A stretch of 64,000 nucleotides of DNA, from assembly GCA_018971045.1 (NCBI GenBank), contig JAGWVF010000006.1:176-64175 (forward strand), given 5' to 3'. Shown piece by piece: positions 7,408-48,830 of the stretch. The translations under genes and the position numbers were made by a program. The notes below the pieces were generated by a model. The model searched no databases, was not told the origin of the DNA, and saw nothing but the letters and a program-made list of their open reading frames with translations. The stretch is from Patescibacteria group bacterium (GTDB lineage Bacteria; Patescibacteriota; Minisyncoccia; Phycocordibacterales; Phycocordibacteraceae). Position 1 is the first letter of the stretch. Each line of letters starts with the position of its first letter.

Positions 7408-7972
7408 ATATCTGACTAATCTCTTGCCGATTGACCGCCAGAAAAAGCTGCGGCGAAGCTACTATCTGCGTCTCTTCGTTATGAGCGCCTTACTGCTTGC
7501 GCTCTTGTTCAGCGCCGCCGCCATACTCCTGTTCCCGACCTACCTGACGCTCTCAAGTAACGAGGATGCGAAGAGGGCGGAACTCGCTTCCGCGGAGAGC
7601 CGGCTTTCTTCGGCCGATGAGAAGGATCTCTCGACGCGGCTTGCATTGCTTACGGGCAACGCAAAAGTTCTGGAGACGCTCGCGACGGCGCCGTCACCGA
7701 GCCATCTCATCGGCTCCCTGCTCGCCGTCCCGCGCCCAGGAATCACCGTTTCCGGCTACGCTTATACGCCCGTTACGACGGCAAAAGGATCGACGAAGAA
7801 ACTCCCGGCGAGCATGAGCGTGACGGGCATGGCGGCGACTCGCGACGCGCTCCGCAACTACCAATTAGCGCTGCAAGAGGTTCCCTTCGTGTCCGTTGCG
7901 GCGCTGCCGGTTTCAGCGTATGCGCAGAGCACCGATATTTTCTTCACTATTACGCTCACCCTTACGCCATGA
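7400..7972 (+). CDS. PilN-like fimbrial assembly membrane protein
   Basis: Start MNEYLTNLLPIDRQKKLRR then a single TM; 8-bp overlap with pilM; position in pilMNO-like operon. Confidence 0.55.
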   Translation: MNEYLTNLLPIDRQKKLRRSYYLRLFVMSALLLALLFSAAAILLFPTYLTLSSNEDAKRAELASAESRLSSADEKDLSTRLALLTGNAKVLETLATAPSPSHLIGSLLAVPRPGITVSGYAYTPVTTAKGSTKKLPASMSVTGMAATRDALRNYQLALQEVPFVSVAALPVSAYAQSTDIFFTITLTLTP

Positions 7973-8571
7973 AATCCTTTCTCGCTCAAGGCATCATCGC
8001 GCTCCTCGTGTGCGGCGGAGCGGCGATCGGCTTTTGGGTGTGGTACGGCATGATCGAAGCGAAGAGCGCGAGCGTAGCCGCGCTCGAGCAGCAGATACAG
8101 CAGGATGCAGATACCGAGAGCCGCGTTGCCGCGGCGCGCGCCTCGCTCGCCGAGATTTCTCAAGATGAGGCGAATATTCGGAGCTACTTCATCTCAGAAG
8201 TCGATGTCGCCTCATTTAATGATGCGCTTGAAACACAGCGCCATGCGCCGGGGGCAACGGTGAAGGTCGTCTCCGTGAGCCGGGGCGGTCCAGGCGCCCA
8301 GTCGACACTGCTGTTCTCGCTGTCGATTGACGGAGCCTTTGACGCCGTGATGCGCACCATCGGCATGATCGAATACGCTCCCTTTGCGGTAACCGTATCG
8401 GGGCTGAATCTCGCACATGCCGACACGACCGGAAAGACGAGTCTCTGGCACGCCGATCTCTCGCTTATCGTGAATACCGTTTCCGCGTCCTCGACGGCCG
8501 GTACCGCGCTCGCGACACCATCGTTCGCGGCCACGACCTCGCCTCTCTTTATCGCCACCAGCACGCCATGA
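7969..8571 (+). CDS. PilO-like membrane protein
   Basis: N-terminal TM, coiled-coil region; 4-bp overlap with upstream gene. Confidence 0.5.
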   Translation: MKSFLAQGIIALLVCGGAAIGFWVWYGMIEAKSASVAALEQQIQQDADTESRVAAARASLAEISQDEANIRSYFISEVDVASFNDALETQRHAPGATVKVVSVSRGGPGAQSTLLFSLSIDGAFDAVMRTIGMIEYAPFAVTVSGLNLAHADTTGKTSLWHADLSLIVNTVSASSTAGTALATPSFAATTSPLFIATSTP

Positions 8572-8882
8572 ACATGAATACGATCCGCCGCCTGAATACC
8601 GTATTAAAGCGCCTACGCCGCAACGCGCCCGGAGACCCGGGGCGCGATTGGCTCATGCTTATGACGCTCTTCCTCATCGCGTTTGCCGCGATTCTCGTAT
8701 GGGCCGCCTGGGCATTCGACACCGTCTCGCGCGGCGGCACGATCGGGTCGAGCGCGATCGAGACGCCGCCGATCTTCGACAAATCATCGCTCGCGGCTAT
8801 CCGCACGACATTTGAGAAGCGCGCCGCCGAAGAGGCGAAATACGAGACAGGCGCCTATCATTTCATCGACCCTTCGCAATAA
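8568..8882 (+). CDS. hypothetical membrane protein (pilus-operon associated)
   Basis: 104 aa, one TM (LMLMTLFLIAFAAILVWAAWAF); translationally coupled to upstream gene. Confidence 0.4.
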   Translation: MNMNTIRRLNTVLKRLRRNAPGDPGRDWLMLMTLFLIAFAAILVWAAWAFDTVSRGGTIGSSAIETPPIFDKSSLAAIRTTFEKRAAEEAKYETGAYHFIDPSQ

Positions 8883-8965
8883 GCGCAGAGCCAAGCTTTC
8901 TCCCATCTCGCTCGCTTGGTAGTAGACGCGTGATAGGGTAGGGTGGAGAAGCGCCTCGCGCACTC

Positions 8966-9040
8966 GCCCCTATAGCTCAATGGATAGAGCTGCGGACTTC
9001 TAAGCCGTCGATGTTGGTTCGATTCCAGCTAGGGGCACCA
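8966..9040 (+). tRNA. tRNA-Arg (anticodon TCT)
   Basis: Acceptor GCCCCTA/TAGGGGC, D-arm GCTC-AATGGATA-GAGC, anticodon loop CTTCTAA, T-arm GTTGG-TTCGATT-CCAGC, encoded CCA. Confidence 0.8.
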
Positions 9041-9048
9041 AATAACTT

Positions 9049-9723
9049 ATGGCGATTTCTATAAAGAAAGCACGGATCCCTTTTTATCCTAATCTCAAGG
9101 ATAACCTGCACTGTTTTCAGTCTGCGCTGAAAATGGTTTTTGCTGTTTTTGAAAATAAATTTTATTCATATACATATCTTGATCAAATAACCGGATATAA
9201 AAAAAATAATTTGACTTGGGATACGACGGCGCTCTTATTTCTTGCAGAAAACGGCTATACGGTGATCAAAATTAGCACCTTTGATTACCCCGCCTTTGCT
9301 TCCGAAGGGACGAGCTACCTGAAGAAGTTCTGGCGCTCTGACGTGTATACAACACAGGCGAAGTTCTCAAATTTTCAGCGGGAACGACGGATCGTCACTC
9401 GACTTATTAAGGATAAGCGCATACGCCTTAAGATACGCAAGCCGACTCTCGCCCTTGTCTCCGCGTATCTTCAAGAGGGGTGGCTCGCAATAGCTCATAT
9501 TGATGTTTCCATTCTCGATAATACAAAGAATTACAGCCCCCATTCGATAGTCATTACTGACGTGCGGCCAACGCGGGTGTCGTTCCATGATCCGGGGCTT
9601 CCTCCCGAAGAAAATCGATCAGTATCCAGAAAGGCGTTTGATCAAGCACTCCGAATCGGAGAAGTCATTCTCATCAAGAAGCCCGGAGCTCTTAAAAAAC
9701 ATCTCTCGCATCGCGGGACATAA
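9049..9723 (+). CDS. hypothetical protein, possible papain-like/C39-like cysteine peptidase fold
   Basis: 224 aa, AT-rich; conserved-looking Cys (NLHCFQSAL) and His (HSIVITD) spaced as in C39-like/BtrH-N domains. Assignment by pattern only. Confidence 0.45.
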   Translation: MAISIKKARIPFYPNLKDNLHCFQSALKMVFAVFENKFYSYTYLDQITGYKKNNLTWDTTALLFLAENGYTVIKISTFDYPAFASEGTSYLKKFWRSDVYTTQAKFSNFQRERRIVTRLIKDKRIRLKIRKPTLALVSAYLQEGWLAIAHIDVSILDNTKNYSPHSIVITDVRPTRVSFHDPGLPPEENRSVSRKAFDQALRIGEVILIKKPGALKKHLSHRGT

Positions 9724-10714: not shown

Positions 10715-11266
10715 ATGTACGAAATTGAACATCGCGCCGTACTGAGCGAAGAAGCCTACCGAGAGCTAGCGGAGCGGCTTGCGCGCGAGGCGGTACTGCT
10801 TGGTTCAGACGACAAGGAGGTATCCTATTATATCTTCCCCGATAAACTCCTTAAGGTCGTGCGGAATGTCTCGAAGGGTACGGCGAAACTCTCCTTGAAG
10901 CTGACCGCACTTGGTGCCGGGTCTTCGTTCCGTGAATTCGAAGTCCTCTTCCCCGAAGAATCCTTCGAGACCATGAAGAATATCTGCGAGAACATCAGCA
11001 CGCCTGACCAGGTGATCAATGGGACACAGAAACGCACTAATTATGAATACCTTGGTGTAGAGATCGCACTCAAGTGGAGTGAAGACTGGGGTTATCATGT
11101 CGAATTCGAGATCATGGTCTCCGACCTCTCCGAGAAGGAGTCCGCAGATGCCCGTATCCGCGAAGCCGCCGCAGCGCTTGCCGTGCCCCTCATGACCGAA
11201 GAAGAGGTGGCTGCCTTCTCCGCGAAAGTAAGAGCGCAGAACAAGTCCTTGGGAACACGCTCGTGA
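10715..11266 (+). CDS. CYTH-domain protein (class IV adenylyl cyclase / triphosphate tunnel metalloenzyme-like)
   Basis: N-terminal MYEIEHR (ExExK-type CYTH signature) and acidic beta-strand motifs HVEFEIMV. Confidence 0.65.
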   Translation: MYEIEHRAVLSEEAYRELAERLAREAVLLGSDDKEVSYYIFPDKLLKVVRNVSKGTAKLSLKLTALGAGSSFREFEVLFPEESFETMKNICENISTPDQVINGTQKRTNYEYLGVEIALKWSEDWGYHVEFEIMVSDLSEKESADARIREAAAALAVPLMTEEEVAAFSAKVRAQNKSLGTRS

Positions 11267-11559: not shown

Positions 11560-12585
11560 ATGATTCCTCTCGATCGAAATGAGAGTTACTGGCTACTTGA
11601 TGATGAGCTCCTCGAGGCGGCGCGTGGCATAGGCGCGCGCGAACTCTCGACCTATCCGGATTATGGAGAGTTGAAAAGTGCTTTAGCGAGATATGCGGAT
11701 GTTGCTCCCGAACAAATACTCGTTACTCCCGGCTCTGACGCGGCAATAGAGTATATTGCTCGTGCGTATGCGGGGAGTGGGGGAGACGTGATACTTCCCG
11801 TACCGACATTTTATGGCTACGAATCTATTCTCGATCGCGTCGGATCGAAGATTATCCCGATCCTCTACAAAGAGGAGAATGGTCGTTTCATATTTCCGAT
11901 TACAGAAACAATCAATGCGCTCGCGAAGAGCTCCGCGAAAGTCTTATTTCTCTGCCACCCTAATAATCCGCTCGGGTGCCCGCTCTCACAAGACGACGTC
12001 TCGACTCTCGCGAGCGCACTGCGAGGATCCAACACAATCGTCGTATCAGATGAGGCGTATTTTGAATTTTCTTCTGGCGCATCACTTTTGCCGCATCTCG
12101 CTGAACTGCCGAACCTACTCATTATCCGTACGCTCTCAAAATCGTTCGCTCTCTCGGGTGCTCGCGTTGGGTATATAATCGCCGATCCGGACACTATAAA
12201 AAAGCTAGAGAAACTCATACTGCCGTGGCCGATCGCGCATCCGAGCGCCGCCACGGCACTCGCGCTTCTCGCGCAGGCAGAAAAAGTGAAGAGGCGGCGC
12301 GATAGGGTTATCGCTGAACTCGAGCATTTCAGAGAAGAAATGAAGCAGATTCCCGGTGTTGTCGTGTATCCCTCGGAGACGAATTTTGTTCTGGTACGAG
12401 TTCCAGACGCCGGGCGTACACGCGAGGCGCTTCTCGCGCAAGGTATACGGGTCGCGCTTGGTGAGTCGATGAGCCGTTTTCCCGAAGCAAAGAAGCTTTT
12501 GAGAGATACCTTGCGCATTGCGACGCCCGCACCCGCTGATCGCTCTGCCGTCATAGCCGCTTTCTCGCGCCTATTCACAACATAA
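11560..12585 (+). CDS. class I/II PLP-dependent aminotransferase (histidinol-phosphate aminotransferase-like)
   Basis: 341 aa; LSKSFALSGARVGYII lysine motif typical of HisC-like aminotransferases. Confidence 0.75.
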   Translation: MIPLDRNESYWLLDDELLEAARGIGARELSTYPDYGELKSALARYADVAPEQILVTPGSDAAIEYIARAYAGSGGDVILPVPTFYGYESILDRVGSKIIPILYKEENGRFIFPITETINALAKSSAKVLFLCHPNNPLGCPLSQDDVSTLASALRGSNTIVVSDEAYFEFSSGASLLPHLAELPNLLIIRTLSKSFALSGARVGYIIADPDTIKKLEKLILPWPIAHPSAATALALLAQAEKVKRRRDRVIAELEHFREEMKQIPGVVVYPSETNFVLVRVPDAGRTREALLAQGIRVALGESMSRFPEAKKLLRDTLRIATPAPADRSAVIAAFSRLFTT

Positions 12586-12611: not shown

Positions 12612-14165
12612 ATGCGTACCAGCCGCTTGCCGGCCCATACCGTGAGGAAGACTGCGGCACGGTCCCGCCCCTCCGCTGTTTCCGCCTCTTTCCTCGCAAA
12701 AGTGCATGTTAACGGAAGCGCCGACTGGCAACGATCGGACAAGAGCCACCTCCTCGCTCTTTTTAAAAAGATGGCGATCGGGATTCCGGCGTATCGGAAA
12801 TTTCTTCGCGAAAACGGGATACGCCGTGAAGCTGTAAAAACGATAGAAGACTTCTCCTCCGTTCCAGCGATAACAAAGCAGAACTATTTGCGGAAGTACT
12901 CTCCAGCCGAGCTTCTATGGAACGGCTCGACCTGTTCCGGACACGTTCTTACCTCGACCTCGGGCTCAACGGGGAAGCCCACCTACTTTGCCCGTTCTCA
13001 CGAGGTCGACGAGCACTCCTCTTTTATTCATGAACTCATTTTCCGTACCAGCTCTCTGAAGAAAGATAAGTCAACGCTCGTGATCGTCTGTTTCGGTATG
13101 GGGGTATGGATCGGCGGGCTTATTACCTATCAGGCGTTCGAGCTCATGGGCCGTCGAGGATACCCGATATCGATCCTCACGCCGGGCATAAATAAAGCCG
13201 AGATTCTGAAGGCGCTGACCGATTTGGCGCCGCAGTATGACCAAGTCATACTCGCGGGGTACCCCCCGTTTCTTAAAGACGTGATCGATGAAGCCCTCGC
13301 CCAGGGCTTTTCTTTTGCCAATCATCGCATGATGCTTCTTTTTGCCGCGGAGGCATTTACCGAAACGTTTCGAGAGTACCTCGCCAAGAAAGTCGGCATT
13401 GAGAATGTCCTTACCGATGCGATTAATATCTACGGAAGCGCCGATATCGGCTCGATGGCGTTTGAAACGCCGCTCTCCATCCTCGCGCGCCGTCTCGCGC
13501 TGAAAGACGAAAAATTATTTGCCGATATTTTCGGTAATACCACGAAGACTCCGACCTTTGCGCAATATGTTCCTGAATTCGTATCGTTTGAGGCGCCCAA
13601 CGGCGAGATCCTCATATCGGGAGATAGCGCTCTCCCGCTCCTTCGCTACTCGATCGGCGATCATGGCGGGGTATACACCTTCCGCGATCTTGTTGAACGA
13701 TACAAGGCACACGGAGTGGATCTGATGAAAGAGGCACAAGCCGCCGGTATCAGGAGACAAGTCTACGAATTGCCGTTCGTGTACGTCTTTGAGCGTATTG
13801 ATCTCGCCACGACTCTCTACGGACTGCAGGTGTATCCAGAAACTATCAAAGAGGTTTTACTCAATAAGCAATACGTCGACACTCTGACCGGCAAGCTCAC
13901 GCTCATTACGAAATACGACGATAATCAGGACCAGTATCTCGAGATCAATATCGAGCAGAAACCGAAGAAAGAGGTAAGCAAGGCGCTCGAGTCGGATCTG
14001 CTCGCGGAGATCGTGAAAGGCCTGCGCGAGAAGAACTCGGAATATCGCGAGCTTTCGAAATTTCTCGGGAAGCGCGCAGAACCGAAGCTCATCTTTTGGC
14101 CGTATGAGGACCCGCTTTATTTCAAACCGGGCACCAAACAGCCGTGGGTGGTGCGTCAGGCGTAA
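12612..14165 (+). CDS. adenylate-forming enzyme, phenylacetate-CoA ligase (PaaK)/F390-synthetase-like
   Basis: TSGSTGKPT AMP-binding motif; N-terminal region LLALFKKMAIGIPAYRKFLRENGI parallels the PaaK N-domain; alternative ATG at 12771. Confidence 0.7.
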   Translation: MRTSRLPAHTVRKTAARSRPSAVSASFLAKVHVNGSADWQRSDKSHLLALFKKMAIGIPAYRKFLRENGIRREAVKTIEDFSSVPAITKQNYLRKYSPAELLWNGSTCSGHVLTSTSGSTGKPTYFARSHEVDEHSSFIHELIFRTSSLKKDKSTLVIVCFGMGVWIGGLITYQAFELMGRRGYPISILTPGINKAEILKALTDLAPQYDQVILAGYPPFLKDVIDEALAQGFSFANHRMMLLFAAEAFTETFREYLAKKVGIENVLTDAINIYGSADIGSMAFETPLSILARRLALKDEKLFADIFGNTTKTPTFAQYVPEFVSFEAPNGEILISGDSALPLLRYSIGDHGGVYTFRDLVERYKAHGVDLMKEAQAAGIRRQVYELPFVYVFERIDLATTLYGLQVYPETIKEVLLNKQYVDTLTGKLTLITKYDDNQDQYLEINIEQKPKKEVSKALESDLLAEIVKGLREKNSEYRELSKFLGKRAEPKLIFWPYEDPLYFKPGTKQPWVVRQA

Positions 14166-14438: not shown

Positions 14439-16241
14439 ATGAATACAGCATACAGCATCGAAGATTTTCTAGAAGTAAAGTCTGCTGGAGGGGCGAGTTT
14501 TAGTCCTGATGGTACGCGGATTGCGTATCTGAGTAACACTACGGGGACATCCCAAATCTTTCTTTTACCCACTGAAGGAGGTGAATCTGAACAACTTACT
14601 GATTTCCAAGATTATGTCTCTTTCGCGCGATTCTCTCCGACCGAGAATATGCTCATATTTGGAAAGGCGGAAGGCGGGAATGAACAGACGCAGCTCTACC
14701 TGTTAGATATTAAGACTCGACAAATCACCAGCATCACGGCGAAGCCTGACGCGAGACATGATTTTGGCGGATGGTCTCCAGATGGGAAGAGCATCTGCTT
14801 CACCTCGAATGAAAGAAATGGAAAGGACTTCGATGTGTACGTAATGGACATCGCGACGCTTAAAAAACGTTGCGTCTTCGATAGGGGTGGGTGGTGTGTC
14901 GCTGAGGGATTTTCTCCACGGGGTACGTATGTTGTCGTACGAGAGAAGCGCTCAGCCGCGAACACTGACCAATACCTTTGCAATCTTAAGACAGGCGTTG
15001 TTGAACACATTACCCCCCACAAGGGAGACGCGTTTTATGCCGGATCATCATGGCTTCCCGATGAATCTGCCTTTTTTCTCATTCAGGATCAAGAAAGAGA
15101 ATTCGCAGGCCTCGCTCGCTATTCGCTTTCTGAAAGAAAATCTGACTACGTTCTTGCTCCGGATTGGGATGTCGAAGGAGTCGTCATAGACAGAGCTGGT
15201 AAGAATATAGCCGTCATCGTAAATGAAGGCGGGTATCAACGAATGACGATATATGATACCTCTCGATTCGAGGTTCGTTCTTGCCGTCTGTCGGCGGGTA
15301 ATGTCTATCAGGCAAGATTTTCCGAGAGCGGATTGCAAATTGCATTCAGCTTAGGAGACTCGCGCCGGACATCAGATGTTTGGATATTGGACTTAGAAAC
15401 AGGAGACTCGCGGCAGATCACACGCAGTTACCAGGGTGTCCCGCCAGAAGTCATGGTTGAGCCAGAACTCATCCAGTTTAAATCGTTCGATGGACTTCTA
15501 ATCCCGGCCTTCTCCTATAGACCGAAGGGAATAAAACGAGGGATGAGAGTCCCCGTGATTATCAATATTCACGGAGGTCCTGAGGCCCAATACCAGCCGG
15601 TATACCAGCCGGTGATACAGTACTTGGTGCACAGCAGTGGGTACGTAGTGGTTGCGCCGAATGTACGAGGCAGCTCCGGGTATGGGAAATCGTACATGGC
15701 ACTTGATAATGTGGAGAGGCGCCTAGATTCGGTGAAAGATATTGTTGCGTTACGTGATCACATTGTTGGGATATTTGAAGGGGACGCTACAGAAATTGCA
15801 TTATTCGGAGGAAGCTACGGAGGATTCATGGTGCTCGCATGTTTGGCATTCTATCCGAAGCTTTGGACAGCGGGGGTCGATGTTGTGGGCATCGTTAACT
15901 TTGTTACCTTTCTTGAAAACACGGCCGCGTATCGACGAGCCTTACGCGAGGCTGAATACGGCTCACTCGAAAACGATAGGGAGTTTTTGGAAAAAATATC
16001 CCCTATCCACTCGATTGAAAAGATAGAAGCGCCGCTGTTTGTCATCCATGGTGCAAATGATCCGAGAGTTCCGCTCTCCGAAGCAGAACAGGTGGTAGAA
16101 AGACTTAGGGGGGTCGGCAGGCATGTTGAATTGCTCGTCTATCCGGATGAGGGGCACGGAATCACGAAGCTTAAGAATAAGCTCGATGCATATCCAAGAG
16201 TGGTCGAATTCTTAACTGTCAACCTTGGACGTTCAGGATAA
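14439..16241 (+). CDS. S9 family serine peptidase (prolyl oligopeptidase/acylaminoacyl-peptidase type) with N-terminal beta-propeller
   Basis: 600 aa; TolB-like N-terminus, GGSYGG nucleophile elbow, C-terminal HGANDPRVP (catalytic Asp/His region); AT-rich relative to flanks. Confidence 0.85.
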   Translation: MNTAYSIEDFLEVKSAGGASFSPDGTRIAYLSNTTGTSQIFLLPTEGGESEQLTDFQDYVSFARFSPTENMLIFGKAEGGNEQTQLYLLDIKTRQITSITAKPDARHDFGGWSPDGKSICFTSNERNGKDFDVYVMDIATLKKRCVFDRGGWCVAEGFSPRGTYVVVREKRSAANTDQYLCNLKTGVVEHITPHKGDAFYAGSSWLPDESAFFLIQDQEREFAGLARYSLSERKSDYVLAPDWDVEGVVIDRAGKNIAVIVNEGGYQRMTIYDTSRFEVRSCRLSAGNVYQARFSESGLQIAFSLGDSRRTSDVWILDLETGDSRQITRSYQGVPPEVMVEPELIQFKSFDGLLIPAFSYRPKGIKRGMRVPVIINIHGGPEAQYQPVYQPVIQYLVHSSGYVVVAPNVRGSSGYGKSYMALDNVERRLDSVKDIVALRDHIVGIFEGDATEIALFGGSYGGFMVLACLAFYPKLWTAGVDVVGIVNFVTFLENTAAYRRALREAEYGSLENDREFLEKISPIHSIEKIEAPLFVIHGANDPRVPLSEAEQVVERLRGVGRHVELLVYPDEGHGITKLKNKLDAYPRVVEFLTVNLGRSG

Positions 16242-16246
16242 AACGT

Positions 16247-16368
16247 CCGTGGGTGGCGCGTCAGGCGTAAAACAATCTTCACTATATTTCTGAATCTCTC
16301 TAATTTGCACGTATTTGAGCATCAAGGCGCTGTGCTTCTTCCCACGCCAGATCAAAAGTCTCCTTCAT
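16247..16368 (+). repeat. ~122-bp direct repeat copy 2
   Basis: Matches 14142-14262; here the minus-strand reading is the genuine 3' end of the TrmB gene. Confidence 0.85.
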
Positions 16369-17046
16369 TATTTCAGCAAAATATGTATCCTCGATAATAA
16401 CGGCAAACTCCTCACGTCCGGACACGAGGACTATCTTATTGTCATAAATGCGAATATCCGAAGTGAAGTTGTATTGTTTAGCTGGTATGAGGCGAATAAA
16501 GGTTTCTCCCTGCGGCTGCGGCATCACCTTTCCCTTGTAAGGAGAAATAATCTGTACCACCTGTTCTTTCTTGCTATAAGAAATAGTGGGGATAACTGCG
16601 AAGGCCCGCACCGCCTCTCCGGACTTCATCATCGCAAGATCATGTACGGCTGTTTCGACGCCCTCCTTCCCCTCATAGAATTTTACTCTTGGATGAAACA
16701 TAAGTGCTGGAGATAGGGCAGTAAGTTCAGGAATAAGGTTATCAATATCTTGATGAATCTTTGCTTGCTTTTGCTCAATAGCCACAGCTTCTTTTAGAAG
16801 CGTGTCTGGATTAACGGCCTCATATATACTGACGCCTTTAGCATCTTCCGCTTTCTCTATAAGACCCTTGTTAATGAGCGATTCTAGAGCTACATATGTG
16901 GAACTCCTATTAATATCAGCTCTCTTTGAAAGAAGTTGAGCGGACAGCGCGCCAGACTCAATGGCAGTCAAGTAAACAATTGCTTCTCTTTCAGTCAAAC
17001 CAAACCCGATTAGCTGAGTAACGATGGTTTTGTCTGGAGATATCAT
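16300..17046 (-). CDS. TrmB family transcriptional regulator
   Basis: N-terminal HTH FGLTEREAIVYLTAIESGALSAQLLS... plus TrmB C-terminal domain. Confidence 0.75.
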   Translation of the reverse strand: MISPDKTIVTQLIGFGLTEREAIVYLTAIESGALSAQLLSKRADINRSSTYVALESLINKGLIEKAEDAKGVSIYEAVNPDTLLKEAVAIEQKQAKIHQDIDNLIPELTALSPALMFHPRVKFYEGKEGVETAVHDLAMMKSGEAVRAFAVIPTISYSKKEQVVQIISPYKGKVMPQPQGETFIRLIPAKQYNFTSDIRIYDNKIVLVSGREEFAVIIEDTYFAEIMKETFDLAWEEAQRLDAQIRAN

Positions 17047-17816
17047 ATTTTATCCACACGGTAGCGCCTGGCTTCTTGTTGAGCGAGGTCGAACGCAACC
17101 TTCATCACCTCAGCTATTTCCTTGCTTTGTATCGAAACAGCAAAGGCTGGGTTATGCGACATAAAGGCAACCTTATCGTCAAAGACGGCAAAATCAGAAG
17201 GAAATTTGAAACACTCGTCAGGTATCAGAGTGATTTCATCAAAATTCGTAGGAGTCTTTTTAATCATTTCTCGTGCCGCGTAATCATCAGGATGGATACC
17301 CCTCATCTTCAAACCTAGAGCCAGTCTGTCCCGCACGTAAATAGGCAGATAGTCTGGTAAGCTGTTAAAGATATTACTTACGGAGGAGAAAACGCGCATC
17401 ATCTTTTCTTTAGAAGCGAGAGTACTTTCAAACCCTTTTCTCAGACCCGCCGCTCCTTCAAGAACTTCTATTTTTGGTTTGAACCGAGAACTCTTATGTG
17501 CCGAACGAAGAGTAGGGGAGAGAGTCGCGAGATTCTGGAGCAAGAGCGTCGATTGCTCCAACTTCTCTTTTGCTGCAAGTGCCAAACGTTCAGGAGGGGC
17601 AGCCGCATATCGCCTCACGGGTTTCTCGTTCACTATGTTCACAAAACCCCGTTTCATTAGACGATCGAGTACAACATACATTGAGCTACGATTAACGCTT
17701 GTTTGATTCGAAATTTCCTGCACGGTTGCAGTCCCAGCGCTCAAAAGAGCTAAGTATACAGCCGCGTCCTTCTCGGGGAGGTCAAGTGCAGAGAGTCTTT
17801 TGGTGAGGGGTGTCAT
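17043..17816 (-). CDS. TrmB family transcriptional regulator (paralogue)
   Basis: HTH LPEKDAAVYLALLSAGTATVQEIS...; 4-bp overlap with downstream TrmB gene; start chosen at MTPLTKRL. Confidence 0.7.
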   Translation of the reverse strand: MTPLTKRLSALDLPEKDAAVYLALLSAGTATVQEISNQTSVNRSSMYVVLDRLMKRGFVNIVNEKPVRRYAAAPPERLALAAKEKLEQSTLLLQNLATLSPTLRSAHKSSRFKPKIEVLEGAAGLRKGFESTLASKEKMMRVFSSVSNIFNSLPDYLPIYVRDRLALGLKMRGIHPDDYAAREMIKKTPTNFDEITLIPDECFKFPSDFAVFDDKVAFMSHNPAFAVSIQSKEIAEVMKVAFDLAQQEARRYRVDKI

Positions 17817-17929
17817 GGGGTCCCAACAGCATAGAATCCAAATGGTTCGCGTGTTGTCAGATATTAGCAACAAATACCAGCAAGAGCAAATAAACCAGAA
17901 GCCTATGCGTGACGACTTGTGTACACATT

Positions 17930-18034: not shown

Positions 18035-18385
18035 ATGAGTAAAGAAGGTACGAACCCAAGATTTTCCTTTAGGAAGGACAGGTTTTTTCGTGACCGCGAA
18101 AGCTACGCTGAATGGTGGGCAATTGTGTGTCTTGGTTGTGCAGAAGAAGTATTACTCTATCAAAAAGACGGACATGGGAAACTATATCGCTGTTATTTAA
18201 ATCGCATTTTTGCTCCTGCAAAATATGCAGATCTCCAATATGACCAAACGATGACGATAAAGAAATTGCCGAATCTAACTTGTCCCCGATGCAACTTGCT
18301 CCTAGGCATACCAATGCTTCATTGGGAGGGAAGGCTTGCTTATCGATTGATAAAAGATCGCTGGGGAAAACGAAGGGAGAAGTAA
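18035..18385 (+). CDS. zinc-ribbon protein, hypothetical
   Basis: 116 aa with CLGC...CPRC cysteine pairs; first gene of tightly packed low-GC operon. Confidence 0.5.
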   Translation: MSKEGTNPRFSFRKDRFFRDRESYAEWWAIVCLGCAEEVLLYQKDGHGKLYRCYLNRIFAPAKYADLQYDQTMTIKKLPNLTCPRCNLLLGIPMLHWEGRLAYRLIKDRWGKRREK

Positions 18386-18389
18386 TTCG

Positions 18390-19109
18390 ATGAGTGGAAA
18401 TTATAAAAATACGGTGCAGATTGCACGGAAAACGCTTATCCCAAAGGAAAGGCGGGTGCAAGTCACTGAAGGGGAATTAAGTAAGTATTTACATGTCACA
18501 CGAAGAGGCGTTGGTCCGATTCATACGCCATACGGTTATTTTTGGCAATACGACTTTCATATCGACGATAAATGGGGAAAGTATTCTGTCCTAGTGCGTG
18601 CCCAAGTGGATAAAGAATACAATCCAATTTTTCTTAACAATGAACTATTACTACGCATAGATTCTGGCTGTGAGACGGGACAGCTGTTTCATGACAATAC
18701 CTGTGAGTGTCGTGAACAATTGCACGAGGCATTAAAGAAGATTAATGAACATGGAGAGGGTATGATTATACACGTACCTTCTCAGGATGGGCGTGGAGGC
18801 GGGTTGGCATTTAAACTAGCAACTCTTCTTCTAGAAAAAGACTTGGGATTGAACACGGTAGAGGCCGCTCGTATTCTTGCTAATAATGAGGAGATTGATC
18901 TCCGGACCTATGGAGGGGTTGTTGGCATTCTGAAATTTTTTAGAGCAAAGCGGAACATATTGCTCATGACAAACAATCCCCACAAAATCTCCACTCTCAA
19001 AGAGAATAGATACAAGATATTGCGTACATCCATTCTCATTCCCCCAACACGCTTTACCAAGAAGCATTTACGAGCAAAAAAGATAGAGCTCGGCCATCTC
19101 CTTCCATGA
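18390..19109 (+). CDS. GTP cyclohydrolase II (RibA)-like
   Basis: RIDSGCETGQLFHDNTCECREQL matches the RibA zinc-binding C-x-C region; DLRTYGG near C-terminus; SD GGGAGAAG upstream. Confidence 0.7.
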   Translation: MSGNYKNTVQIARKTLIPKERRVQVTEGELSKYLHVTRRGVGPIHTPYGYFWQYDFHIDDKWGKYSVLVRAQVDKEYNPIFLNNELLLRIDSGCETGQLFHDNTCECREQLHEALKKINEHGEGMIIHVPSQDGRGGGLAFKLATLLLEKDLGLNTVEAARILANNEEIDLRTYGGVVGILKFFRAKRNILLMTNNPHKISTLKENRYKILRTSILIPPTRFTKKHLRAKKIELGHLLP

Positions 19110-19906
19110 CAGAATGTCTCTCAATCTCACTTCGAGGGTTGTCTGCTTCCGGTAAGGGCACTATTGCGTCCCTGCTTGCAAAAGAGCTCAACATCCAGCA
19201 CGTAGATTGTGGGCAAATATTCAGGGCCATTGCACTGTATGTGCATGAACACCGAGTAAAAGGAATTGCCTCTTTCTTTAAGAAAGCAAAGATTCAGATA
19301 ACAAATCGAGATATTACAGTCGAGGGCAAAACGTATTTTCGTGAACAACTACAAACTGAGAATGTCGGTCGTCTCGCAACTGAATTGAGCCGAAAACACA
19401 GCGACAAGCTTGTATCGTTAATAAATGCTCTTCTCTCCACGATACCTCGAGTGATAGTTGATGGACGAAACGCGGGAATAGATATTCTTCCCAACCCCAA
19501 TTTTTCTTTTTTCCTTCAGACAAAATTGGAATCACGCGTGCAGCGACGATATAATCAAGAACGATCTAATGGAATAAAGGTCAGCGTTATAGATATTCTT
19601 CACAGTCTCTCTCACAGAGATGAGGTTGATAAAGAGCGGGATATCAGACTCGTTGAGCCCCAGCGACATGAGCGCACTGTTGTTACAGATGGGAAGACAC
19701 CACTGCAGTGTGTTAATGAAATCATAACTACAATCAATAAGACGAAATCACAAATATTTCTTTGGGTTGCGGTAGACAAACAAGGAAAATTCTTCACTTA
19801 CGAAGATGGAGCCGTAATTGTAGCGACTAAGAAAAGCAAAATTCCAATAAGGGTACGTGAATGCAAAGATTTCTCTATTATTCAGGTAATACTTAAGCCA
19901 GTATAG
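19106..19906 (+). CDS. cytidylate kinase (Cmk)-like P-loop kinase with C-terminal extension
   Basis: GLSASGKGT P-loop, VIVDGRNAG and RVQRRYNQ motifs of Cmk; 4-bp overlap with upstream gene; ~50 aa longer than typical Cmk. Confidence 0.65.
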   Translation: MTECLSISLRGLSASGKGTIASLLAKELNIQHVDCGQIFRAIALYVHEHRVKGIASFFKKAKIQITNRDITVEGKTYFREQLQTENVGRLATELSRKHSDKLVSLINALLSTIPRVIVDGRNAGIDILPNPNFSFFLQTKLESRVQRRYNQERSNGIKVSVIDILHSLSHRDEVDKERDIRLVEPQRHERTVVTDGKTPLQCVNEIITTINKTKSQIFLWVAVDKQGKFFTYEDGAVIVATKKSKIPIRVRECKDFSIIQVILKPV

Positions 19907-19980
19907 ATATGACCCATGTTCTGTGTAGCACCACATTGGCAGAGCTCATTCGAGCTGGGGCAATATGTTAGAATCGAGGG

Positions 19981-21000
19981 ATGACACCTCTGTCGGCGGA
20001 AGACTTCGGGAAAGGATTTCCATTTCAGAGAGATATTTCAGAACAAATTCGCTTCTTACTGACGGCTGCCGTACGAGCCCCCTCGACGCATAATTGCCAG
20101 CCATGGCGGTTTCGGGTTGAGAATAACCGCCTCCTTGTGTATCGCGATACACGCATCCGTCTCCCACAATCAGATCCGGAGAACCGCTATGCGCACATAA
20201 GTATTGGGTTTCTTCTGCACCATATCGATCTATTGGGGAAATGGCTTTCCATGGCCCCGCAAATTTCCCTTGTGAATGGGGATGAACACGTTGCAGAGAT
20301 TACATTTTCTCCAGCGACGAAGGCAGAGGAAATCCCACCACTTGTTGTAGCGATTTTTAAACGTCGAAATCGTCGCGGTGTGTTTGAGGACAAACCAATT
20401 TCTCAATCAATATTTGATGAGGCAACAAAGATGCAAATGCCATCTTTCATTCCTCCAGAGGTGAAGGTGGTTACCGATAGAGCAGCTCTGGCGAGCATTG
20501 CCGATGCAACTTCAGGCAATATGAAACGAGTCTATAAAAGGAGAGTGTTTCGTCGCGAGATGTCTTCATGGATTACGCCAAATAATTCAACACGCAAGGA
20601 TGGCATCCCAGGGTATTCGCTCAACCAGCCAACATTCATGAGCTGGATACTCCCGACCGTTATCCGATTGGTAAATATGGGGAAGGTATTAGCCAAGCTG
20701 AACAATGAGTCTATCGCTTCAGCGGCCGCGGCCTTTGGTTTTGGGGCTGAGGATTCTCCCTCTGGATGGCTCTCGGTCGGGTTTGCCGCTTCTCACACAG
20801 CATTAACGCTTGTCGCCCATAATATCGACTACTCCGTTTTTGTCGCCTCAATAGAATATGAGGACACTCGCAAGTCAGTTGGTGAGGTCTTTCGTCTCCA
20901 TCAGCCACTCGAGTTCCTCTTTGTTGCAGGGACATTCCCCGATGAAGTTGCGTGGATGACCCCACGAATATCGATCGAAGATAAACTAATACCATCATGA
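19981..21000 (+). CDS. tandem-domain nitroreductase family protein (Acg/SagB-type dehydrogenase-like)
   Basis: STHNCQPWRF hallmark; 339 aa length consistent with two fused nitroreductase-like domains. Confidence 0.75.
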   Translation: MTPLSAEDFGKGFPFQRDISEQIRFLLTAAVRAPSTHNCQPWRFRVENNRLLVYRDTRIRLPQSDPENRYAHISIGFLLHHIDLLGKWLSMAPQISLVNGDEHVAEITFSPATKAEEIPPLVVAIFKRRNRRGVFEDKPISQSIFDEATKMQMPSFIPPEVKVVTDRAALASIADATSGNMKRVYKRRVFRREMSSWITPNNSTRKDGIPGYSLNQPTFMSWILPTVIRLVNMGKVLAKLNNESIASAAAAFGFGAEDSPSGWLSVGFAASHTALTLVAHNIDYSVFVASIEYEDTRKSVGEVFRLHQPLEFLFVAGTFPDEVAWMTPRISIEDKLIPS

Positions 21001-22043
21001 AAAACGACTTCTCCGTTCGGATTTTTGATCCGCATCATGGGGATGATGCGGGTGAAATCGCAAAACTGCGTTCCGAGAACTACTTTTTTGTAGACACGTA
21101 TGACGAACAAATTGCGGAATTAATGGAGATACGCGATCCCGAATCGGTCGGAGGCACTCACAAACCGCTCACTGATGAGCCGGGCGAACGTATCGTCGAG
21201 TATCCGTGGCGCAAAACATTAGTGCGTATCGTAGGGCCTGAAGCATATCGTGAATTGCGTACTAATCGAAATCGGAACTTACTTACGCAGGAGGAGCAAA
21301 AGAAATTTGCTTCTGCGAACATCGGTTTCGCTGGCCTCAATGTGGGGAACCCGGGGGCAGTGTGCATTGCGCTTGAAGGTGGCGCGCACATAATGAAACT
21401 CGCTGATCTTGATGCGCTATCGGTAACGAATTTAAATCGTTTTCGTGCCGGACTTGCAGATCTTGGGCTCAATAAGGCGACACTTACTGCGCATCAGATT
21501 CTCGAGGTAGATCCTTATTACAAAATAGAATTGCACGAAAAAGGAATTACATCAGACACCGTCGAGCCATTTATCGCAGAGCCAAAGATAGATCTGCTCG
21601 TCGAAGAGATGGATGCGCTTCCTCTGAAAATAAAGATACGGGAAGTCGCGCGGAGTAAGGGTGTGCCCGTCATCATGGTGACCGGGAATGGAGAAGGAAT
21701 ATTGTTAGATGTCGAACGTTATGATCTAGAACCAGATCTGCCCATTCTTAATGATCTTTTGGAGACGCGAATAATTGATGCAGTTACGAAGCCGTCAGGT
21801 CCGCTCGCACCGCGTGAGAAAGTCGCTCTCGCGCGGGATTTCATGGGTACGAAATATTTGGACGCGCGCCTCCTCGATTCTTTTGGAGAATTCGGGAGCA
21901 AGCTTGCAGGCATCCCACAGCTCGCCGAATCGTCCTTCCTGCGTGGCGCCGCACTGTGTTATGCAGCAAAAGCGATTATACTCGGCCGACCACTCGCCTC
22001 CGGTCGATATGCATTTTCGTTCGAGAATTGTATGCAAAAATAA
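20997..22043 (+). CDS. E1-like (ThiF/MoeB/MccB-family) adenylyltransferase with ~95-aa N-terminal extension
   Basis: NIGFAGLNVGNPGAVCIALEGGAHIMKLADLDALSVTNLNR Rossmann/ATP-binding region of ThiF family; no CxxC zinc motifs; 4-bp overlap with nitroreductase gene. Confidence 0.7.
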   Translation: MKNDFSVRIFDPHHGDDAGEIAKLRSENYFFVDTYDEQIAELMEIRDPESVGGTHKPLTDEPGERIVEYPWRKTLVRIVGPEAYRELRTNRNRNLLTQEEQKKFASANIGFAGLNVGNPGAVCIALEGGAHIMKLADLDALSVTNLNRFRAGLADLGLNKATLTAHQILEVDPYYKIELHEKGITSDTVEPFIAEPKIDLLVEEMDALPLKIKIREVARSKGVPVIMVTGNGEGILLDVERYDLEPDLPILNDLLETRIIDAVTKPSGPLAPREKVALARDFMGTKYLDARLLDSFGEFGSKLAGIPQLAESSFLRGAALCYAAKAIILGRPLASGRYAFSFENCMQK

Positions 22044-22061: not shown

Positions 22062-23633
22062 ATGGAATCTTTCTTAAATACAGATCTTCTCTTGGTTGGC
22101 GTAGCGGTTGCAGGTGCAGGCACGCTCGGGTTCTCTATTTATTTCTCGGACACAAAGAATTCAACTTCGCGATCCTTTCTTCTCTTCGCAATCGTAAGTA
22201 TTTTTTGGAGCATTACAAATTTCGCGAGTGCACGAGCCACTGACCCAATTCTCTTACTCTGGCTTATTCGTCTGGTTCTATTTTTTGCGATATGGCATGC
22301 TTTTTCATTCTTCATACTCGCACAGCAATTCCCAGAACCAAAACCGATTCTTCAGAAAAAAGCCTTTCTTGGATTTTTGTCTTGGACGGCAATAATATCA
22401 ATCATTGCTCTCACCCCATTTGTTTATGAATCAGTAGTCACTATTGATTCGATGATTACAACAAAGACTGGTCCGGGTATTGCGTTATTTGGACTCTCGG
22501 TATTTTGGTTTGTTGGAGCAGGTATTTGGACACTTGCTCGAAAACTTTTTCGTTCAAAGGGAATAGAACGAAATCAAATGGAATTTGTCTTTACGGGTAT
22601 GATAATGACCTTCATCTTTCTCATTATCTTTAATTTTCTTTTTCCAGCACTTCTGAATATTTCGACCTTAGTTCCTTTTGGTGGTCTTTTTCTTCTACCG
22701 TTTATCGTAGGTACAGCTTATGCAATCCTGCGCTATCGTCTCTTTGATCTCCGTGTAGCTCTTTTTGGTTTACTGACGTTTATGCTTGCGACCGCAACAT
22801 TCTTTGATGTTATTTTGGCTAATTCCATAACTCTCGTTCTGTATCGTGTAGTCGAACTTTTGCTCGTACTCGTTGCAGGAATCTTGCTTATTCGAAATAT
22901 AATCCATGAATTTAGACTTGAGAAGGAGCTTCGGCAGACCAACGAACGCCAAGAGACGCTCATCCACTTCATCGGACACGAGGTCAAAGGGTTCTTGACC
23001 AAAGATATGGGAGTTTTCGCCGCACTGCTCGAGGGAGACTACGGCACCCTGCCGGAGGAGCTCAATCCGTTCGTGACGCAGGCGCTCGCGCAGACGCGCC
23101 AAGGGGCGGATTCGGTAGCGAACATATTGAAAGCCGCGAATTTGAAAAAAGGGACCGTAACCTATACCAAGGAGCCCTTCGACCTTAAAGAGGTCGTGGC
23201 GGCGGCGGTTGAAAAGGAGAAGCTGATCGCGGAGCGGAAGGGTCTCACGCTCTCGTTTACTGCCGACGAGGGAGGGTCGTACCGGATGGTCGGCGACAAG
23301 GCGCAGATAAACGACCACGTGATTAGAAATATTATCAGTAACGCCATCAACTACACCCCAACAGGATCCATCGCCGTCTCATTGAGGCGAGACGGAGAGA
23401 AAGTGGCGCTTGAAGTAAAGGACTCAGGTATCGGCATCACCGACGAGGATAAGAAGAAACTCTTCACCGAAGGCGGCCACGGGAAGGATTCGATAAAGAC
23501 GAACGTCCACTCGACCGGCTACGGCCTCTATATCGCGAAGCAGATCATCGAGGCGCACGGCGGCACGATCACTGCCTCGAGCGAGGGAGAAGGGAAGGGC
23601 GCGACGTTTGTAGTGAAGTTCCCTGCAGTCTAA
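22062..23633 (+). CDS. sensor histidine kinase with N-terminal multi-pass (7TM-like) membrane domain
   Basis: ~270 aa of TM helices, then HisKA (FIGHEVKGFL) and HATPase_c (G-x-G-L motifs, GTITASSEGEGKGATF). Confidence 0.8.
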   Translation: MESFLNTDLLLVGVAVAGAGTLGFSIYFSDTKNSTSRSFLLFAIVSIFWSITNFASARATDPILLLWLIRLVLFFAIWHAFSFFILAQQFPEPKPILQKKAFLGFLSWTAIISIIALTPFVYESVVTIDSMITTKTGPGIALFGLSVFWFVGAGIWTLARKLFRSKGIERNQMEFVFTGMIMTFIFLIIFNFLFPALLNISTLVPFGGLFLLPFIVGTAYAILRYRLFDLRVALFGLLTFMLATATFFDVILANSITLVLYRVVELLLVLVAGILLIRNIIHEFRLEKELRQTNERQETLIHFIGHEVKGFLTKDMGVFAALLEGDYGTLPEELNPFVTQALAQTRQGADSVANILKAANLKKGTVTYTKEPFDLKEVVAAAVEKEKLIAERKGLTLSFTADEGGSYRMVGDKAQINDHVIRNIISNAINYTPTGSIAVSLRRDGEKVALEVKDSGIGITDEDKKKLFTEGGHGKDSIKTNVHSTGYGLYIAKQIIEAHGGTITASSEGEGKGATFVVKFPAV

Positions 23634-23963
23634 TCGAACCTCCCTATGAATCTGAAACGGCAATCCTGCCAGCTTCGTGACGACTACTCAATACATTGAC
23701 GACTGAGTCACCGCCGCGACAGACGCCGAAGCATCACAGCACTCGACTTCCCGTCGGGTGCGCTTTTTAAGATGAGATAGGGAATAGACAGTGATGCACT
23801 AAACTTTGTTTAATCTGTTAGATTGCTCCGAGGACTGGACGACGTTAGAACCGTTTTGGTAGAGGGGAAAAGCGAGTTTACCTACCGCTGTCCTGCGTTT
23901 GCGATGCCTGCATAGCACACTCGCATCAAACCCACCATCCGAAATACCTGCTATACTGACAGT

Positions 23964-45380: not shown

Positions 45381-45407
45381 CGCCGCAAGACGTTAGGATA
45401 CGTGAAT

Positions 45408-48819
<3,412 letters not shown>

Positions 48820-48830
<11 letters not shown>

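Follow-up and report, generated by a model that had tools for sequence, protein, structure and literature searches.

Which reaction does a pair of overlapping genes in a genome of the Patescibacteria catalyse, and does it act on a peptide or on a small molecule? The genes encode a nitroreductase-fold flavoprotein (NTR) and an E1-like adenylyltransferase (E1). They occupy positions 19981–22043 of the window, the stretch of 64,000 nucleotides of contig JAGWVF010000006.1 (assembly GCA_018971045.1, Patescibacteria group bacterium) that was analysed. The original prediction framed the pair by analogy with thiazole/oxazole-peptide (TOMM) clusters and suggested the C-terminus of a peptide or protein as the substrate of E1. 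We find that the pair is not a peptide-modifying system. Judged by homology, it appears to be a split relative of the known oxazolone synthetases of the MoeY/TrzS type, since tblastn, BLASTP and HMMER searches place E1 in the Rv1355c clade. The two open reading frames (ORFs), of 339 codons for NTR and 348 for E1, lie exactly where they had been predicted (Table 1) and are coupled, with the stop codon of NTR and the start codon of E1 sharing 4 bp in the sequence ATGA.

E1 matches the Pfam family ThiF with E 4.5e-12. Its best NCBIfam match by a wide margin is NF005901, the Rv1355c family (290 bits, E 2.8e-86), in which E1 residues 4–346 align to positions 10–339 of the 722-position profile. The models of ThiF, MoeB, MoeZ, TcdA and SAMP-E1 score 15–49 bits, far below their cutoffs, and no ThiF-type model other than that of the Rv1355c family exceeds 51 bits. 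In BLASTP, E1 residues 6–348 align with residues 9–338 of a 708-residue Rv1355c-family protein from Mycolicibacterium (37% identity, E 6e-61). A tblastn search of plasmids recovered 15 actinobacterial records that are 36–38% identical to E1 over 95–99% of the query, the majority of them annotated as Rv1355c family protein. Searched exhaustively with HMMER, 1.84 billion representatives yielded 839 clusters at E<=1e-30. The best 150 of these contain stand-alone proteins of about 350 residues and ThiF-FDO fusions of 700–780 residues, with identities of 35–45%.

The adenylation site of E1 is intact. Ten residues (R88, R91, G113, G117, D137, D139, N145, R148, K160, and D206) are invariant in the alignment with Escherichia coli ThiF and MoeB, and the same ten are invariant with the Rv1355c family. 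The aspartate equivalent to D217 of TrzS and D130 of MoeB is kept, where the TrzS residue was mapped by motif and not by direct alignment with the Mycobacterium smegmatis protein. Both CxxC zinc pairs and the loop cysteine of the E. coli enzymes are missing, in agreement with the earlier description of E1 as zinc-less. E1 also carries the motifs YPWR, GL-NVGN, DVERYD, IPQLA, and SGRY, which are specific to the Rv1355c clade.

The AlphaFold2 model of the complete E1, calculated with 74 homologues, has a pLDDT of 93.4. A Foldseek comparison of the model to the PDB retrieved AclA from Tenacibaculum discolor (9egb, E 8e-15), ThiF, MoeB, PaaA, TcdA, and MccB, all aligned over only about 260 columns of the core domain. 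AclA is the closest solved structure to the core (TM-score 0.60 for the query and 0.82 for the target, 21% sequence identity); unlike E1, however, it is only 250 residues long and lacks an N-terminal domain. The closest PDB match by sequence is TcdA (E 7e-8).

The N-terminal extension of E1, about 95 residues long, is real, as had been claimed, and folds confidently, with a pLDDT of 93 in the whole model and 87.6 when modelled alone. Residues 1–80 form a beta-alpha-beta-alpha-beta-beta domain, which is followed by the arginine-finger helix. The idea that the extension is a peptide clamp of the MccB type did not survive. Compared alone by Foldseek, the extension matches neither MccB nor PaaA nor any further chain in the PDB (best E 1.6, TM-score at most 0.23), and its predicted structure bears no similarity to a clamp or to RRE-like domains. 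Instead, both the NF005901 and the BLASTP comparisons align the extension, including the YPWR motif, to the N-terminal part of the Rv1355c family; it is a trait of the Rv1355c clade. MccB and PaaA align to E1 no further than ThiF does. ThiF has no peptide clamp.

On the Streptomyces sp. NBC_01431 plasmid NZ_CP109497.1 (L086:5122-8036), a TrzS-type ThiF domain forms the C-terminal part of a 622-residue protein annotated as ThiF family adenylyltransferase, whose gene is followed by one for KAS III. The N-terminal 259 residues of this protein have weak matches to GNAT (E 1e-3) and to FeeM N-acyl amino acid synthase (E 7e-3). It seems to join an acyltransferase to a cyclase and to lack an FDO domain.

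NTR resembles the Acg-family oxidoreductases, which bind flavin mononucleotide (FMN). Its best curated match, NCBIfam NF047509, covers positions 2–318 of the 319-position model (167 bits, E 6.6e-49), and the protein also matches Pfam TM1586_NiRdase. Weaker matches connect NTR to the C-terminal half of the ThiF-FDO fusion models NF011424 (54 bits) and NF005901 (44 bits). The sole solved relative by sequence is Acg from M. smegmatis (PDB 2ymv, E 9e-9). The motifs RAPSxHNxQPW (R32–W42) and RRxxR (R128, R132) are invariant among the Patescibacteria homologues, the Acg family and the FDO half of the Rv1355c-family protein. Of the label "Acg/SagB-type" given to NTR earlier, the SagB part is not supported, as no SagB or McbC model matches at E<=0.1. 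NTR shares with Acg (Rv2032), Rv3131, and the M. smegmatis protein the tandem-repeat nitroreductase folds and both motifs, whereas those proteins belong to the DosR regulon and stand alone, with no ThiF-like enzyme coupled to them.

The predicted MoeY-type pairing is strongly upheld by these results, as E1 belongs to the Rv1355c/MoeY clade as a stand-alone protein and its partner is Acg-like and belongs to the FDO subgroup, as in the MoeY fusion. Rv1355c, the former MoeY, is TrzS, in which an ATP-dependent cyclase and a flavin oxidase are fused (PMC12856293). With the acyltransferase TrzA, it produces N-acyl tryptazolone from N-acyl-tryptophan by ATP-dependent cyclisation and subsequent O2-dependent desaturation, in Mycobacterium and Rhodococcus (PMC12856293). 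E1 resembles TrzS along its whole length, including the N-terminal extension, in the lack of zinc and in the adenylation aspartate motif, and the two systems share the combination of a ThiF-like protein with an FDO-type nitroreductase-fold flavoprotein. They differ in that TrzS is one chain with ThiF preceding FDO, whereas here two genes encode NTR and then E1. In addition, the flavoprotein here is Acg-like and matches the FDO half of TrzS weakly, and TrzA is absent. The partners in the Patescibacteria, which are not actinobacteria, are a PaaK-like ligase and a seven-transmembrane (7TM) histidine kinase.

A precedent for the split arrangement is the tyrazolone pathway TyzACB of Mycobacterium tuberculosis, in which TyzB (ThiF) and TyzC (FDO) act together with TyzA (PMC10404671). 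There too a stand-alone ThiF homologue stands beside a stand-alone FDO of about 340 residues in one operon; the likeness is judged from the published description. Together, TyzB and TyzC cyclise an N-acyl aromatic amino acid in an ATP-dependent step and desaturate it in an O2-dependent one (PMC10404671). Unlike in the window, the acyl-coenzyme A (CoA)-dependent N-acyltransferase TyzA adjoins them. OxzB of Pseudoalteromonas rubra, which works with OxzA, is a ThiF-nitroreductase fusion and was reported as the first ThiF-family enzyme that acts on a small molecule (bioRxiv 10.1101/2020.06.11.147165). OxzAB combines the same two enzyme types and gives a product derived from an aromatic amino acid, but OxzB is fused and proteobacterial, and its partner OxzA is an N-acyltransferase using fatty acyl-CoA. 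Oxazolone synthetases were discovered between 2020 and 2025 in Proteobacteria and mycolic-acid Actinobacteria, and a role in signalling has been speculated (PMC12856293). The FDO-subgroup flavoprotein that accompanies the cyclase in these systems has its counterpart here in NTR, directly adjacent to E1.

Homologues of E1 occur by the hundreds in Patescibacteria. A scan of GTDB species genomes with E1 found relatives in 240 genomes, and the best 80 of the 240 were examined. These 80 are labelled as Patescibacteria lineages, as "bacterium" metagenome-assembled genomes, or, in a few cases, as uncultured Gammaproteobacteria, which we take as mislabels. For 82 non-redundant loci, the ORFs that surround the E1 gene were called and clustered. 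Four families make up a module: E1 (76 of the 82 loci), a PaaK-like protein of about 500 residues (73 loci), NTR (71 loci), and a 7TM histidine kinase with HisKA_7TM and HATPase_c domains (66 loci), which is located downstream on the same strand and always last. All four are found together in 55 loci; many of the others lie on truncated contigs. The ligase and the kinase had been overlooked as partners in the original prediction.

The core genes of the module lie on one strand in at least five orders, and most of the gaps between them are a few bases long. With PaaKl for the PaaK-like protein and HK for the kinase, the orders are PaaKl-NTR-E1-HK (21 loci), NTR-E1-PaaKl-HK (16), E1-PaaKl-NTR-HK (7), PaaKl-E1-NTR-HK (7), and E1-NTR-PaaKl-HK (2). 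In 48 loci NTR and E1 are separated by a median of 3 bp and by at most 40 bp. The divergence of E1 and that of NTR from the window proteins co-vary across the loci (Spearman 0.71). The linkage is kept despite the shuffling of the genes and therefore provides strong evidence that the module is a functional unit.

Accessory genes beside the module encode, in 27 loci, a dehydrogenase of the Glu/Leu/Phe/Val type, for which tryptophan dehydrogenase ScyB is the best curated model (334 bits); in 8 loci, a HisC-like aminotransferase; and in 7 loci, a MIO-type aromatic ammonia-lyase (PF00221, E 6e-134). Of the 82 loci, 42 have one or more of these three genes, and a contiguous array of aminotransferase-PaaKl-NTR-E1-HK is found in L001, L006, L008, and L011. 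All three predicted enzymes would work on amino acids at the alpha-amino group, and they hint at aromatic ones. Genes for receiver-only response regulators neighbour the module in 17 loci, and genes for ABC exporters do so in 6. In contrast to the individual enzymes, whose kind is already known, the replacement of the acyltransferase by a ligase, the almost invariant neighbourhood of a 7TM histidine kinase, and the distribution across Patescibacteria appear to be new; we found no description of the four-gene module in the searchable literature, which omits many subscription papers.

The family memberships of the proteins, the intact ATP-adenylation and FMN motifs, the tight coupling of E1 and NTR, and the conserved module are firm. 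By analogy with TrzS, TyzB and OxzB, we infer cyclisation and desaturation as the roles of the pair, and we propose a substrate, a product and roles for the ligase and the kinase. E1 would adenylate a small N-acylated amino-acid-like substrate, probably an aromatic one, at its carboxylate, and the amide oxygen would then close a five-membered oxazolone ring, as in the three known enzymes. The Acg-like flavoprotein would subsequently desaturate the C-alpha to C-beta bond using FMN and O2. The module contains a PaaK-like ligase and no OxzA-type acyltransferase, and the ligase probably supplies the acyl-amino-acid substrate. We speculate that it activates an aryl acid, which the accessory aminotransferase, dehydrogenase or ammonia-lyase would derive from an aromatic amino acid, and so leads to the substrate without acyl-CoA. 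It may also be that the 7TM histidine kinase senses the product or controls the module, which, like the role of the ligase, is a weaker proposal than that for the pair. On balance, we slightly favour the reading of the pair as the core of a Patescibacteria module that makes an aryl-acyl oxazolone-like small molecule independently of acyl-CoA.

Several observations weigh against the oxazolone reading. The N-acyltransferase, the defining partner in the known oxazolone pathways, is missing: no enzyme of the OxzA, TyzA, TrzA or FeeM type was found among the ORFs of the window between 9 and 28 kb or in about 85 Patescibacteria loci, no acyltransferase family is among the gene clusters that recur in the 82 loci, and tblastn with two candidate acyltransferases, a test of limited sensitivity, returned nothing at E<=1. 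That the ligase stands in for the acyltransferase is purely our conjecture, and the known activity of PaaK-family enzymes is that of CoA ligases and not of amide synthetases. In the window, the ligase and the aminotransferase lie 5.8 kb upstream of the pair, with other genes in between. NTR scores below the cutoff of the Acg model (167 against 199 bits). Among the FDO clusters of PMC10404671, it is closer to FDO-B, with the Acg-type proteins, than to FDO-A, which holds the corresponding domains of OxzB, TrzS, and TyzC; a BLASTP comparison of NTR with the FDO half of the TrzS family recovers the FMN motif only. The recurring genes that resemble those of nucleotide metabolism (GTP-cyclohydrolase-II-like, kinase-like, and CYTH) are not accounted for.

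Some of these observations would also fit the same enzyme classes performing other chemistry. E1 could activate a small-molecule carboxylate for the formation of an amide, an ester or another ring, while the flavoprotein catalyses another redox step; the module could then yield an aromatic metabolite other than an oxazolone, or it could serve the catabolism or salvage of aromatic amino acids. This alternative gains from the missing acyltransferase and from the Acg-like, not FDO-A, character of NTR. The combination of a ligase with an aminotransferase, dehydrogenase or lyase also resembles pathways of aryl-acid activation such as those of PaaK and FlxA/FlxY, and the closest solved structure to E1 is that of AclA, whose reaction we did not find in the searchable literature. 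However, E1 shares its full-length architecture and clade motifs with the oxazolone-forming clade, and its tight coupling to NTR mirrors the fusions in TrzS and OxzB. We regard other chemistry as less probable than oxazolone formation, yet as a quite plausible competitor and the most serious one.

A housekeeping or nucleic-acid function is improbable. E1 would in that case be a ThiF- or MoeB-like activator of a sulfur carrier, or a TcdA-like tRNA cyclodehydratase of the ct6A type, beside a generic nitroreductase. The position of TcdA as the top PDB sequence match of E1 and the recurrence of nucleotide-related genes (GTP-cyclohydrolase-II-like, cytidylate-kinase-like, and CYTH) nearby are in line with such a function. 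Nevertheless, the ThiF, MoeB, and TcdA models score far below that of the Rv1355c family, E1 lacks the zinc site and the loop cysteine, and no gene of ThiS or MoaD size recurs beside the module in the 82 loci. NfsA/B-type models reach at most 12.5 bits on NTR. We reject the identification with ThiF, MoeB, TcdA, and NfsA/B on account of the family scores and missing motifs; by these scores neither E1 nor NTR sides with the housekeeping families, a grouping by which the original prediction would have been refuted.

The TOMM reading, in which an N-terminal clamp would dock a ribosomal peptide to E1 while NTR served as azoline dehydrogenase, is very improbable. ThiF-like and nitroreductase-fold proteins co-occur in TOMM clusters, and PaaA and MccB are among the structural neighbours of the E1 core (Foldseek E about 1e-9 to 1e-10), which share with it and with the TOMM C-protein the E1-like adenylation fold. 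The TOMM/SagB, MccB, and PaaA systems have features that are absent here. The lack of a YcaO partner that had been noticed before extends to all ORFs between 9 and 28 kb of the window and to ten of the thirteen ORFs of at least about 350 residues elsewhere in it, and no YcaO-like family is among the recurrent families of the 82 loci. A precursor gene is also missing, as had been suspected: none of the 66 small ORFs in or near the modules recurs, and the short gaps between NTR and E1 leave no intergenic room for one. The small upstream ORF MTHVLCSTTLAELIRAGAIC, which had been judged unconvincing, does exist, at position 19909-19971 and not at 19915-19977. NTR matches the Acg family and not SagB or McbC, and the N-terminal domain of E1 has no counterpart in the clamps, while the core aligns as in the clampless ThiF. 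The missing YcaO and precursor are expected, because TrzS, TyzB/TyzC, and OxzB act on small N-acyl amino acids, which also speaks against a peptide or protein C-terminus as substrate. With MoeY now known as the small-molecule enzyme TrzS, the TOMM framing, and with it that of ribosomally made peptides in general, has lost its ground, and we reject it as largely refuted.

A role of E1 in ubiquitin-like conjugation or as an anti-phage E1 of the CBASS Cap2 or Bil/Bub-like kind, to which weak PADLOC E1-E2 matches point (29 bits, E 9e-8), is the least credible and is rejected as essentially refuted by the gene context: the matches are generic and confined to the adenylation core, none of the families that recur beside the module is E2, JAB or Ubl-like, E1 has no catalytic cysteine, and neither NTR nor the ligase has a PADLOC match.

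Patescibacteria are ultra-small, largely episymbiotic bacteria with a minimal metabolism and no obvious acyl-CoA pool. The clade of TrzS-type cyclases is widespread among them in split form, with an adenylate-forming ligase in the place of the acyltransferase. More tentatively still, and we consider this rather unlikely, the four-gene module may be a pair of signal synthase and receptor that is widespread in Patescibacteria. With it, these bacteria would make an aryl-oxazolone-like molecule from aromatic amino acids, independently of acyl-CoA, and sense it, or an analogue from the host, through the 7TM kinase. The module would then represent an unrecognised chemical language for cell-cell communication or host sensing, and give bacterial oxazolones their first physiological role. 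The module ties oxazolone-type chemistry to signal transduction in a concrete and testable manner, and its compact set of three or four genes is suited to heterologous reconstitution. The assignment also corrects a likely recurring mis-annotation of such proteins as "ThiF family adenylyltransferase", "molybdopterin/thiamine biosynthesis adenylyltransferase" or "hypothetical protein".

The module of the window is interrupted by an insertion (Table 1). The ligase, which carries the adenylation P-loop TSTSGSTGKPT and has no Pfam match, is 64% and 52% identical to the proteins encoded directly upstream of NTR-E1 in L001 and L003, respectively. It weakly matches FlxY, a ligase of flexirubin biosynthesis that works alongside a tyrosine ammonia-lyase. 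Between the ligase and the pair are genes for a peptidase, two regulators, a Cys-rich protein, a GTP-cyclohydrolase-II-like and a cytidylate-kinase-like protein, and similar insertions are found in L007, L012, L018, and L089. The kinase gene starts 18 bp after the stop codon of E1. A scan for promoters and terminators gave counts that were not above chance in the region, with only one plausible terminator, the hairpin after the kinase, which is a consensus match only. The response regulator, amino-acid dehydrogenase, ammonia-lyase, ABC exporter, and the c25 protein described below, which accompany the module elsewhere, were not found in the window.

Table 1. Position of the gene pair, its module partners and the intervening genes in the window.
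Feature	Position	Strand	Basis or description
HisC-like class I/II aminotransferase	11560..12585	+	Aminotran_1_2 E 9e-49; hisC 238 bits (cutoff 276)
PaaK-like (phenylacetate-CoA-ligase family) adenylate-forming enzyme	12612..14165	+	NCBIfam PaaK E 1e-16; 2y4o E 4e-10
S9 prolyl-oligopeptidase-family peptidase	14439-16241	+	600 residues, beta-propeller
Two tandem TrmB-family regulators	16300..17873	-	Pfam TrmB E 4e-13 and 1e-17
Cys-rich protein of 116 residues (zinc-ribbon-like by eye), GTP-cyclohydrolase-II-like protein, cytidylate-kinase-like protein	18035..19906	+	GTP_cyclohydro2 E 1e-26; Cytidylate_kin E 4.5e-33
NTR, Acg-like nitroreductase-fold flavoenzyme (FDO subgroup), predicted desaturase/oxidase partner	19981..21000	+	NF047509, 2ymv, FMN motifs
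E1, predicted stand-alone TrzS/MoeY-type ThiF-like ATP-dependent cyclase	20997..22043	+	NF005901, BLASTP, adenylation residues
7TM-receptor histidine kinase	22062..23633	+	Pfam HisKA_7TM 43.5 bits; HATPase_c 87.5 bits
Terminator-like hairpin	23739..23761	+	About 100 bp past the kinase stop; 9-pair stem with 6 G-C pairs, then a T run

The genes of the insertion have counterparts in other loci. A copy of the peptidase that is 76% identical lies directly upstream of NTR in L007. One or two TrmB genes on the opposite strand are located beside or inside the module in several lineages (L007, L012, L018, L021, L023, L051, L077, and L089); a pair or a single TrmB gene was counted beside it in 8 loci and also occurs in L089. 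The TrmB pair of the window may be local regulators. Homologues of the trio of Cys-rich, GTP-cyclohydrolase-II-like, and kinase-like proteins are encoded between PaaKl and NTR in L018, where E1 is 50% identical to that of the window, and genes for a GTP-cyclohydrolase-II-like protein, a kinase, and a CYTH protein lie upstream of NTR in L089 (L089:6923-8890). GTP-cyclohydrolase-II-like proteins, kinases resembling cytidylate (CMK) or guanylate (GMK) kinases, Cys-rich proteins, and CYTH proteins recur in or beside the module in varying orders, in the window at 18035-19906 and 10715-11266. These nucleotide-related genes may point to a nucleotide-derived moiety or to a supply of flavin.

Other neighbours of the module are less frequent. 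A protein of about 310 residues without a Pfam match (cluster c25) is encoded next to the kinase, usually just upstream of it, in L047, L052, L056, L060, L064, and L082. Its glycine-rich stretch LGSGGME resembles by eye a motif for binding S-adenosylmethionine (SAM), and the protein could be a tailoring enzyme. In L090, the E1 of which is 80% identical to that of the window, a radical SAM gene and a gene for tyrosyl-tRNA synthetase (TyrRS) immediately precede NTR, and the gene after the kinase encodes an ABC exporter (L090:1580-4048, 7777-9561). Two small ORFs near this radical SAM gene are mutually unrelated and not Cys-rich. Class Ib aminoacyl-tRNA synthetases of the aromatic type (TyrRS/TrpRS, cluster c6) neighbour the module in about 17 loci, which could be a case of ancestral synteny or could signal that the module and aromatic amino acids are functionally linked.

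The window is heterogeneous in composition, with a GC content of 42–50% at about 10–32 kb and 55–62% on both flanks. The low-GC part holds the gene for AspRS, and the high-GC parts hold those for ArgRS, SHMT, FtsK, and PilM; the window is not an obvious island or chimera. At 45402-48830 (+), it encodes a class I aminoacyl-tRNA synthetase of 1142 residues (tRNA-synt_1, Ile/Leu/Val/Met type) with an anticodon-binding domain. Residues 506–672 of this synthetase form an insert of the histidine-phosphatase superfamily (PF00300, E 1e-35), which gives the enzyme an unusual architecture.

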